A DNA stretch of 64,000 nucleotides from the NCBI RefSeq assembly GCF_053078305.1, contig NZ_CP166879.1. One strand, 5' to 3'. Of this stretch, positions 22,794 through 24,183 are shown piece by piece. The translations under genes and the position numbers were made by a program. Positions within the stretch are counted from its first letter, which is position 1. Each line of letters opens with the position of its first letter. The notes under the pieces are model-generated. The model did not search any database. It was not told the DNA's origin and saw nothing but the letters and a program-made list of their open reading frames with translations.

Positions 22794-23053
22794 TAACGTT
22801 TTCCTTATTGATGCTATTCATTTTGGACATACAGATCACTTTTGATGATTTGCGGAATATCAACAAAAATGATTGCGGCAAATCCTATCACCTGGCGCAA
22901 TAAAAAATCACGAAAAATAAGCTGAAATAAGGACTCAAAAAACAACTAAGAGTTATTGTTTTTTCTTCGAACGGAGACGTACCTAACTTACTAATACACA
23001 ATAATTTAAAAGTCCCCACCCCTTCTCCCTGGGTGAGAAAAAATCTAATTCAG

Positions 23054-23106
23054 CGAATATCTGAAATGATATGTAGTTTTCTGTACAGAATCATTTCAGA
23101 TATTCG
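23054..23106. repeat. 17-bp perfect inverted repeat (cgaatatctgaaatgat / atcatttcagatattcg) around a 19-bp spacer containing the 10-bp palindrome tctgtacaga
   Basis: Read directly; located about 260 bp upstream of the tpsA start in a 1.4-kb AT-rich non-coding region. Confidence 0.6.
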
Positions 23107-24183
23107 AATAAAACAACAAGGTTGATAAGTTACGATTAATTTAAATCTTATTATTTGATTAACAAAACATCAGCATTACTGCATCTTATTCTCTATATCT
23201 TTTACGCCGGGATAGATTCTTTATGGTCATTACGGGCAGGCACCATTTCATTATATTACCATTTACATTCACTCTTGTAACCCTTAAGAGTTATATAAAA
23301 GGCAATAGTTCTTGCTCATGGTAATACTGAGATCGGATTAACCGTGAGGTTAGCTATATAGAGAGAGCTCTTTGGCTTTGCGACAATTAGCTTAAGCAGC
23401 CACATTATGTTTGGCTTACCGTTGAAAGGTAGAAAGAAGAGCAAAATGGTTCACAAGGTTTCATTCCCATCTAATAGCAATTACCCCTATACATCATCCC
23501 TTAACGTACTCTGGGCTTCATGAAAATGTTATTCAAAATTAAAGATTGTAATGATTTTCATAATGTTGTTATCATTCTGCAGCAAAACAACCTAACTCAA
23601 TGATTATACTTTATTTTTTATTCGTTAAGAGTTGATGTTTTTTACAGAAAGCACTACATTCGCGCCCATTTCCCACCACAGGAAAAGCTGAAATAATCTT
23701 AAATGACTGTATTAACCCTTTTTCCCAATGTCAGCACTCTTAAATATCGTTGTTTTATTCTTATAAAAACGGCTTTTTTGACATAAAAAGTAATAGGTAC
23801 AATCATTATGCAGCATTTACAACCTTAAATCATCGCAAAAACAAAATTACACAGAATAAAACCCTGCCCATCATCTTTCGGTAAGAATTAAATTACTATA
23901 TTACCGATTAACACCAGTATGAATGTAAATTCAATTGTTATACATGTGATGAATGTCATATATTGTGCTCATCGATTGCAGGGCATCGCTATTCTTTTAG
24001 AGATACAGATATCACGCTGTTACTCTCTATATAAAGAACACATAAAGATTAGTTGTGTTACTGCAGTTGTTATGTCGCATATGGAAAGCCCATTGTTACA
24101 TCTTTAGTAAGAAATTTTTTCACTTTCAAAATTTTTACTCCAAGAAGATGGGCTGTTTTGCTGCAAGCAATTGAGTTAGTGCA

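Follow-up and report, generated by a model that had tools for sequence, protein, structure and literature searches.

A long AT-rich spacer between the divergent otpA and loc6 operons of O-island 47, with conserved ends, a near-neutral middle and a conserved hairpin

The Locus

We analysed a 64,000-nucleotide (nt) stretch of contig NZ_CP166879.1 (assembly GCF_053078305.1), hereafter the window, and within it the 1390-nt intergenic spacer at 22794-24183, which lies between otpA (tpsA), read leftward, and a gene for a 207-amino-acid (aa) protein, read rightward. The locus is E. coli O-island 47 (OI-47), alias S-loop 71, with flanks of the spacer that match ECs_1282 and ECs_1281 of strain Sakai, and on the chromosome it adjoins the serX tRNA gene (tRNA-Ser, 2194-2278). 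The GTG start of otpA/tpsA at 22793 (minus strand) forms the left edge and the ATG of the 207-aa open reading frame (ORF) at 24184 (plus strand) the right edge; RefSeq annotations of near-identical genomes give the same boundaries. On the Sakai chromosome (NC_002695.2) the spacer corresponds to 1348686-1350075, the hairpin described below to 1349762-1349814, and the predicted start sites to ~1349994 (otpA, plus strand) and ~1348900 (ECs_1281, minus strand). An earlier note, made from the letters of the window, had placed a non-coding, strongly AT-rich region at these coordinates between two divergent virulence-type operons. The coordinates are correct, and both operons do encode surface structures.

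18981-22793, minus strand: otpA (TpsA exoprotein, ECs_1282/Z1542 homologue), with a Pfam TPS domain (9.5e-42)
22794-24183, no strand: whole intergenic spacer from otpA (tpsA) to the ECs_1281 homologue, 1390 nt, 33.2% G+C, without a conserved ORF
24184-24807, plus strand: first gene of the loc6 fimbrial operon, encoding the 207-aa protein (WP_001039007-type), NarL/FixJ-type regulator-like

The minus-strand set comprises 17 consecutive genes with very short gaps (2467-22793, ~20 kb): otpA, otpB, acpS, SDR, FabZ-like, ACP and aminomethyltransferase-like genes and two ketosynthase genes, together with ABC transporter parts and genes for a LolA-like protein, a malonyltransferase and ycdU. From their arrangement these genes look like a single ~20-kb operon that joins a secretion system to a lipid/polyketide-type pathway. 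Linkage of otpA to lipid genes also recurs in three Enterobacter-like contigs (L022, L023 and L025). The plus-strand set consists of the gene of the 207-aa protein (ORF207) followed by genes for a pilin, a chaperone, an usher, a 444-aa fimbrial protein and a second chaperone. ECs_1282/1283 have been named the OtpAB two-partner secretion system in the literature, with no function assigned, ECs_1276-1280 are the loc6, or "type 3-like", chaperone-usher fimbrial cluster, and poor laboratory expression has been reported for the OI-47 adhesin-type operons, as has induction of loc6 in the cold. A literature search by locus tag returned no regulatory data for the spacer.

Queried against 5426 complete E. 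coli genomes, the 1390-nt spacer matches 380, in each case full-length, single-copy, in one piece and in one orientation, and none of these 380 RefSeq genomes annotates a feature under it. The main carriers are O157:H7, O55:H7 and O145:H28. The locus matters in that OI-47 is present in nearly all O157:H7 strains and in ~7% of complete E. coli genomes. Among plasmids, DNA and protein searches alike turned up nothing but chromosomal records filed in error.

This uniformity bears on the idea that the spacer is an invertible or methylation-based phase-variation switch of the fim/pap type for the fimbrial operon. Fimbrial operons are often phase variable, and several pairs of inverted repeats lie 500-730 nt apart in the region. 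These long-range repeats are, however, imperfect and of the length that chance predicts in AT-rich DNA, the neighbourhood contains no recombinase gene, paired GATC modules were not observed in the region, and all 380 copies share one orientation. An invertible switch is largely refuted by these data, and we consider a switch of either kind highly improbable.

Composition and Evolution of the Spacer

The spacer is as AT-rich as the earlier note had described it: its G+C content is 33.2%, compared with 47.9% for the whole 64-kb window, which places it in the lowest 1.65% of segments of 1390 nt, and the AT run quoted in that description (ttatactttattttttattcg) is located at 23603-23623. The low-G+C tract extends rightward across the 207-aa gene to ~25000. 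The spacer is also the longest unannotated gap of the window, the runners-up measuring 1180 and 920 nt. Its non-coding status is borne out as well. The longest stop-to-stop frame in the spacer, 71 codons, is at the level of shuffled sequence (72.7 +/- 15.7 codons), and of the ORFs of at least 30 aa within the spacer proper, none remains open with a conserved sequence in all of seven E. coli alleles. A few small ORFs do remain open, but these either overlap the conserved block next to otpA or show 14-22% residue change between alleles in sequence that cannot be aligned with the diverged lineage described below.

The rate of change was measured on the seven E. coli alleles, each aligned with 1 kb of flank on either side. 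The window-type and O157-type (Sakai) spacers diverge by 9.9% overall, and the flanking coding sequences by 0.7-1.6% (5' end of otpA) and 1-2.6% (207-aa gene). The local synonymous divergence (dS) between the window and Sakai is 0.113 in ORF207, 0.100 in the pilin gene, 0.080 in the usher gene and 0.077 in the N-terminal part of otpA. Since the spacer divergence of 0.099 falls within this range, the spacer as a whole evolves at a near-neutral rate. Blocks of ~5% divergence are found at 22794-22990, 23141-23300, 23701-23790 and 23890-24088. Three others (22991-23140, 23591-23700 and 23791-23889) diverge by 18-20%, ~2x the local synonymous rate. The mosaic allele Z1322 combines the window and O157 types, which indicates recombination between old haplotypes inside the spacer.

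A deeper comparison set was assembled from contigs found through distant homologues of the 207-aa protein (54-56% identity). Contigs L017-L020, the diverged lineage, have the gene order of the window (tpsB, tpsA, spacer, regulator-like gene, fimbrial genes), with flanks 79-84% identical to the window and a spacer of 1293 nt and 36.7% G+C. BLAST alignment of that spacer is confined to ~170 nt beside otpA. Across these lineages the long AT-rich spacer thus appears as a conserved trait of the locus, while its central sequence is not conserved. L017 also carries a G+C-richer patch (5140-5230) with a 29-codon ATG ORF (MSGNVRTSSAAVYPENQYPTEFPATGALL) without a counterpart in the window; this ORF could be left over from a lost gene or be a small ORF specific to that lineage.

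23300-23880, no strand: central spacer, evolving at or above the local synonymous rate, unalignable with the diverged lineage, no feature found

The truncated otpA homologues of Enterobacter-like genomes directly follow wza-wzb-wzc, behind a ~290-nt spacer that lacks the hairpin described below, and loc6-like operons are also found without otp. Because each half is found apart elsewhere, we regard the otp and loc6 halves as separable modules and the spacer as their junction. The neutral drift of most of the spacer is a warning against equating length and AT-richness with regulatory complexity.

Conserved Promoter-Like Sites at the Two Ends

Two sites combine a sigma-70-type -35/-10 pair at a spacing of 16-18 nt with preservation in relatives, one upstream of each operon (22911-22882 and 23935-23964). 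On the otpA side the elements are as follows.

22882-22911, minus strand: candidate otpA promoter, -35 GTGATT (22911-22906), 18-nt spacer, TGn-extended -10 TGATAGGAT (22890-22882)
22831-22876, minus strand: stem-loop at the 5' end of the short otpA leader, predicted in the window and in L017
22937-22964, no strand: AT-only palindrome AAAAAACAA-N10-TTGTTTTTT, ~30 nt upstream of the -35

The candidate otpA promoter is the same in the window, Sakai and L017, where it lies inside a fully conserved block (22860-22925), and the Enterobacter-like otpA remnants in L023 and L024 are also preceded by TAGGAT, at about the distance seen here. By consensus match, transcription from this site would start near 22875, ~80 nt before the GTG. 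In L017 the arms of the AT-only palindrome read AAAATAA/TTATTTT, a C-G to T-A change made on both arms, and the palindrome is possibly a protein site. It was rejected as a stable RNA stem (folding z -1.1 and +0.4). The leader stem at 22831-22876 is a weak lead as a stable RNA, with z values of -0.5 and -1.0 that are not significant. A consensus fold of the whole leader gave many predicted pairs, but it was drawn from two lineages and a poor alignment, and we set it aside.

The corresponding elements on the fimbrial side are these.

23882-23903, plus strand: conserved motif TAAGAATTAAATT..TATTA, ~70-90 nt upstream of the predicted ECs_1281 start
23935-23964, plus strand: candidate ECs_1281-loc6 promoter, -35 TTGTTA (23935-23940), 18-nt spacer, -10 TATATT (23959-23964)
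23965-24183, plus strand: predicted ECs_1281 leader, ~210 nt, with an almost invariant ribosome-binding region (24138-24183)

TTGTTA-18-TATATT is among the matches of a consensus scan of the region. Both its hexamers and the spacing between them are kept in the window and Sakai, in L017 and L020, and in L021, while the surroundings change. The site lies in a block of 5% divergence, compared with 20% upstream (23791-23889) and 8% downstream (24089-24137), and its consensus match predicts a start near 23971. The motif TAAGAATTAAATT..TATTA is likewise kept in the window, L017 and L021 while its flanks diverge, which makes it a candidate regulator site, and a further island, ACATAAAAGTAA near 23781, is conserved in the same three lineages.

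A Conserved Hairpin Upstream of otpA

Apart from the two ends, one further element stands out from the near-neutral sequence of the spacer, a hairpin-forming palindrome that we call hp1.

23054-23106, no strand: hp1, hairpin-forming palindrome of 53 nt, 17-bp perfect arms (23054-23070 and 23090-23106) and a 19-nt loop
23128-23175, minus strand: conserved block beside hp1, shared by E. coli and L017, just upstream of hp1 in the minus-strand reading

The 19-nt loop holds a 4-bp inner stem, and the whole stacked helix measures ~21-22 bp. Within the arms, a 12-bp core (ATCTGAAATGAT/ATCATTTCAGAT) keeps 23 of its 24 bases in L017 (left arm 12/12, right arm 11/12), where the surroundings can no longer be aligned, and the distance from the hairpin to the otpA start is 261 nt in the window and 265 nt in L017. 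The centres of the arms are 31 bp apart in both lineages. In the window the predicted folding energies are -24.5 kcal/mol on the minus and -26.6 kcal/mol on the plus strand (z -8.1 and -8.7), and in the Sakai allele -28.5 kcal/mol (z -7.7) on the minus strand versus -22.4 kcal/mol on the plus strand.

The pattern of change within the helix is consistent with selection on pairing. The two main E. coli alleles differ by two A-T to G-C changes, each made on both arms; three other E. coli alleles have one mismatch apiece; and the inner stem TGTA/TACA of the window has become GTGTG/CACAC in L017. Among six distinct sequences, 86-87% of cells are paired, compared with 22-45% in slid controls, with an equivalent count for the plus strand, and 4 of the 22 pairs have changed on both sides. 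The strand signal differs between the parts of the helix: in the outer stem, single-side transitions leave a G-U pair on the minus strand only, whereas the inner stem of the common allele has a U-G pair on the plus strand, or else takes another register. Because the inner stem covaries within a 19-nt loop, a folded single strand is favoured over a cruciform or a simple dimer operator; because the core is invariant, the sequence itself is probably also read by something.

The hairpin occurs once per genome, and a dispersed repeat of the REP/ERIC/MITE kind was rejected on that ground. A covariance model of it, run on the window and the collected loci, matched only itself; exact matches to its core number 0 in 100,044 species-representative genomes, a set whose E. 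coli representative lacks the island; and a metagenome scan with the core returned only the E. coli-type alleles already known. Judged by its conservation, hp1 appears to be a new, small element under selection. The hairpin, the near-neutral rate of most of the 1.4 kb and a frameshift in tpsA, described below, had been overlooked in the earlier note.

Perfect palindromes can, however, be kept symmetrical without any function. Quasi-palindrome template switching is established in E. coli, and it would mimic compensation by copying a mutation from one arm to the other. In hp1, which is a perfect and AT-rich palindrome, every double change is a simple transition, three alleles have single-arm mismatches of the sort that a mutate-then-correct process would leave, no strand preference can be demonstrated, and no Hfq-crosslinking entry covers the hairpin. 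On the other hand, neutral decay should not have spared 23 of 24 core bases where the spacer no longer aligns, nor does it account for the kept distance to otpA, and the covarying inner stem in the 19-nt loop fits a folded single strand. We therefore regard a functionless DNA palindrome as unlikely, though still a serious rival.

A second alternative is that the arms are inverted double-stranded DNA sites for a protein, perhaps the RcsB-like 207-aa protein, that coordinates otpA and the fimbriae. With their centres 31 bp, or three helical turns, apart, the arms would lie on the same face of the DNA, and this spacing is equal in both lineages, as is the invariant core sequence. The neighbouring gene encodes a protein of NarL/FixJ type, and members of that family bind inverted repeats; hp1 lies upstream of the best otpA promoter-like site rather than within it, and a one-mismatch copy of the right arm, ATCATTTCGGAT, is present at 24214-24225, in codons 11-14 of the 207-aa gene. 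That copy is, however, not kept in L017, matches to the arm motif in the window are at chance level (10 versus 7.3 expected), and covariation in the outer arms and the inner stem would not be expected of an operator. The operator explanation is in our view likewise an unlikely but serious rival.

The third alternative is a hidden, unannotated gene, for a small protein or a trans-acting small RNA (sRNA). The earlier note had suggested small RNAs for this region, and the long AT-rich island spacers of O157 are relatively rich in sRNAs (PMC8565820). Read on the minus strand, a promoter-like TTGTTA-16-TAAATT (23165-23138) within the conserved block, the hairpin and a U-run at 23046-23036 would yield an RNA of ~95 nt in the E. 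coli alleles. The promoter-like match is found in these alleles only, however, its spacing being lost in L017, and hp1 was rejected as an intrinsic terminator: on the minus strand its AT-rich stem is followed by the U-run only after 7-8 nt. A consensus scan for intrinsic terminators found no site in 22500-24500. Rfam 15 gave no match in the region, whether the whole window was scanned with gathering thresholds or 22600-24400 with E-values up to 10 (best score in the region 25.8 bits versus a threshold of 51.5), and the Hfq-crosslinking (Hfq-CRAC) sRNA catalogue for O157 Sakai (EcOnc set) has no entry near 1.348-1.350 Mb or ECs1280-1282. Esr41, considered as an sRNA candidate, was rejected because it is located in OI-43. 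These results lend no support to the suggestion of small RNAs, and with no conserved ORF in the spacer a hidden gene of either kind is improbable. Thus, the hidden gene, the dispersed repeat and the terminator are rejected or unsupported.

Long hairpins in the 5' leaders of long operons serve as RNase III sites, as 5' stabilisers, for example in the ompA leader, and as antitermination hairpins for NusG paralogues such as LoaP. The hairpin described here resembles them in its long helix, conserved core and covarying ends and in its fixed distance upstream of a ~20-kb operon; it differs in being known from sequence alone and absent from Rfam. No ops/JUMPstart element was seen, by eye only. A more specific proposal is that hp1 is a new cis-regulatory RNA or protein-recognised element that governs the ~20-kb, 17-gene operon, through processing, stability or antitermination of a long leader, or through coupling to the fimbrial operon by the RcsB-like 207-aa regulator. 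We put this forward tentatively, at low odds.

The 207-aa Protein Resembles NarL/FixJ-Type Regulators

The gene at the head of the fimbrial operon had been labelled a fimbrial regulator in the earlier note. It is under strong purifying selection, with a ratio of nonsynonymous to synonymous change (dN/dS) of ~0.02 versus Sakai. The protein has no sequence match in Pfam, NCBIfam or PDB. Within its family, GerE scores reach 14.6-17.5 bits versus a cut-off of 23.5, in the C-terminal third of 3 of 11 members, and the RcsB C-terminal domain scores with an E-value of 0.44. Eight remote relatives, 195-223 aa long, emerged from an exhaustive profile search; one of them also heads a pilin-chaperone-usher operon, and a scan of species-representative genomes with the 207-aa protein returned none, the peptide patterns being too strict for diverged relatives. 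By sequence, the protein appears to be a member of a small unannotated family of ~200-aa proteins.

Structure prediction was more informative. An AlphaFold2 (AF2) run with 4 sequences only gave an unusable model (pLDDT 43.6), and the 11-sequence family alignment was used instead, yielding a model with pLDDT 81.8 and pTM 0.77. The predicted architecture is a receiver-like alpha/beta domain followed by a C-terminal four-helix DNA-binding domain. The top 40 Foldseek matches to this model are almost all RcsB, EvgA, NarL, FixJ, VraR, LiaR or VpsT; they extend over the full length, with E-values of 2e-4 to 4e-3, TM-scores up to 0.53 (with RcsB-DNA complexes) and sequence identities of 10-17%. The likeness to RcsB, EvgA, NarL and FixJ thus consists of a full-length fold match and a LuxR-type helix-turn-helix signal at the C-terminus of the relatives. 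The differences are the 10-17% identity, with no family model past its threshold, the lack of an adjacent kinase gene, and an Arg for a Lys: in the alignment of the 207-aa family an invariant Arg appears to occupy the expected position of the receiver Lys, and the acidic residues of the pocket look conserved.

Because of the structural matches the label "fimbrial regulator" is reasonable, although family membership by sequence criteria fails. In favour of the label are the fold match to RcsB, EvgA, NarL and FixJ and the fact that relatives head chaperone-usher operons; no curated family bears it out.

Proposed Interpretation as a Shared Control Region

Based on these observations, we propose that the spacer is the shared upstream control region of the two divergent OI-47 operons, with functional ends, a neutral middle and one conserved hairpin; we put the probability of this reading at about 0.55. 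The leftward operon would comprise otpAB and then ~15 lipid/polyketide-type and transporter genes, and the rightward operon the NarL/FixJ-like regulator gene and then the loc6 chaperone-usher fimbrial genes. At the otpA end, ~130 nt with the conserved extended -10 promoter-like site would be functional, and at the regulator end ~300 nt with the conserved -35/-10 pair, the ~210-nt leader and short motifs that may be regulator sites, perhaps for the 207-aa protein itself. The middle 600-800 nt, changing at the neutral rate, would be the junction of the two gene modules. The AT-richness of the spacer would make H-NS-type silencing likely, and the hairpin would most likely be an RNA in a longer otpA leader or in another transcript, as a site of processing, stabilisation or protein recognition.

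Silencing by H-NS had also been suggested in the earlier note. The G+C content is well under average over several hundred bp, as in H-NS-silenced regions, and on this compositional ground silencing of the spacer is plausible. Like known targets of xenogeneic silencing, the spacer has 33% G+C, belongs to a strain-variable island by serX and lies upstream of adhesin-type operons reported as poorly expressed in the laboratory; it differs from them in that the high-affinity motif is not enriched, the region having one 9/10 match (23132-23141).

Several observations weigh against the proposed reading. Promoter-like matches in a consensus scan of the region number 9, versus 8.2 +/- 3.5 in shuffles, and all the promoters and start sites given here are consensus matches. 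Thus, of the multiple promoters envisaged in the earlier note, one conserved promoter-like site per operon stands, while the count itself equals that of shuffled sequence. The H-NS motif TCGWTWAATT has 22 matches in the window, versus 22.3 expected, and the AT-richness could be a mutational bias in unconstrained enterobacterial DNA; because such a bias yields the same composition, AT-richness alone is no proof of selection for silencing. For the hairpin, the evidence comes from six distinct sequences in two lineages, for which shuffle controls are lenient since the sequences are related, and its strand is ambiguous, with consensus energies of -23.6 kcal/mol on the minus strand versus -22.4 kcal/mol on the plus strand. 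The best conserved otpA promoter-like site is found ~180-230 nt downstream of the hairpin, so that a role as RNA needs a second, distal promoter, and the only candidate for one, TTGTTA-16-TAAATT, is not kept in L017. The missing Hfq-crosslinking entry for Sakai points the same way.

Two known systems provide the nearest comparisons. The csgD-csgB region of E. coli (curli) is a long AT-rich divergent control region of ~750 nt, a target of nucleoid proteins with a long leader, and one of its two surface-fibre operons begins with the gene for a FixJ/LuxR-type regulator whose receiver-like N-terminal domain is atypical. The spacer of OI-47 shares with it the AT-rich divergent layout between surface operons and a FixJ/LuxR-type regulator gene first in one of them; in contrast, it is twice as long, at ~1390 nt, and mostly unconstrained, and its partner operon encodes two-partner secretion and lipid biosynthesis, not fibre subunits. 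The ecpR (matA)-ecp system is reportedly subject to H-NS repression and to positive autoregulation of ecp. There too a LuxR-type regulator gene stands first in a pilus operon, with the promoter upstream of the regulator gene; the 207-aa protein differs in having, in its predicted structure, a full receiver-like domain besides the helix-turn-helix, and in its lack of similarity to a curated family.

The region is, then, largely an ordinary divergent regulatory spacer of a known island, in which the hairpin is the new part, and the current understanding of bacterial gene control is unchanged by these results. They do make the regulation of OtpAB and loc6 directly testable, by providing candidate promoters, a likely dedicated regulator that is annotated as hypothetical, and a conserved hairpin.

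Other Observations in the Window

In the window otpA is a frameshifted pseudogene, split into ORFs at 20703-22793 (696 aa) and 18981-20645 (554 aa) with the junction near 20645-20703. Sakai and other alleles have an intact gene (1270 aa), and otpA is marked "frameshifted" in the 99.9%-identical genome ETEC6335, whose annotation also records frameshifts in a ketosynthase gene and in the grvA homologue of the same island. The frameshifts in otpA, the ketosynthase gene and the grvA homologue suggest decay of the island in the lineage of this strain.

In the fimbrial operon, the N-terminal half (28788-29687) of the gene for the 444-aa fimbrial protein, which is likely the tip adhesin (ECs_1277), is ~10% diverged between the window and Sakai and is the sole coding stretch of the island with a divergence equal to that of the spacer. 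This may represent allelic diversification of a receptor-binding domain. Elsewhere in the window, Rfam matches the Yersinia antisense sRNA family Ysr251 at 43728-43921 on the plus strand (189 bits, E 2.5e-51), antisense to the 3' end of phoH (minus strand, ~43721-44509).

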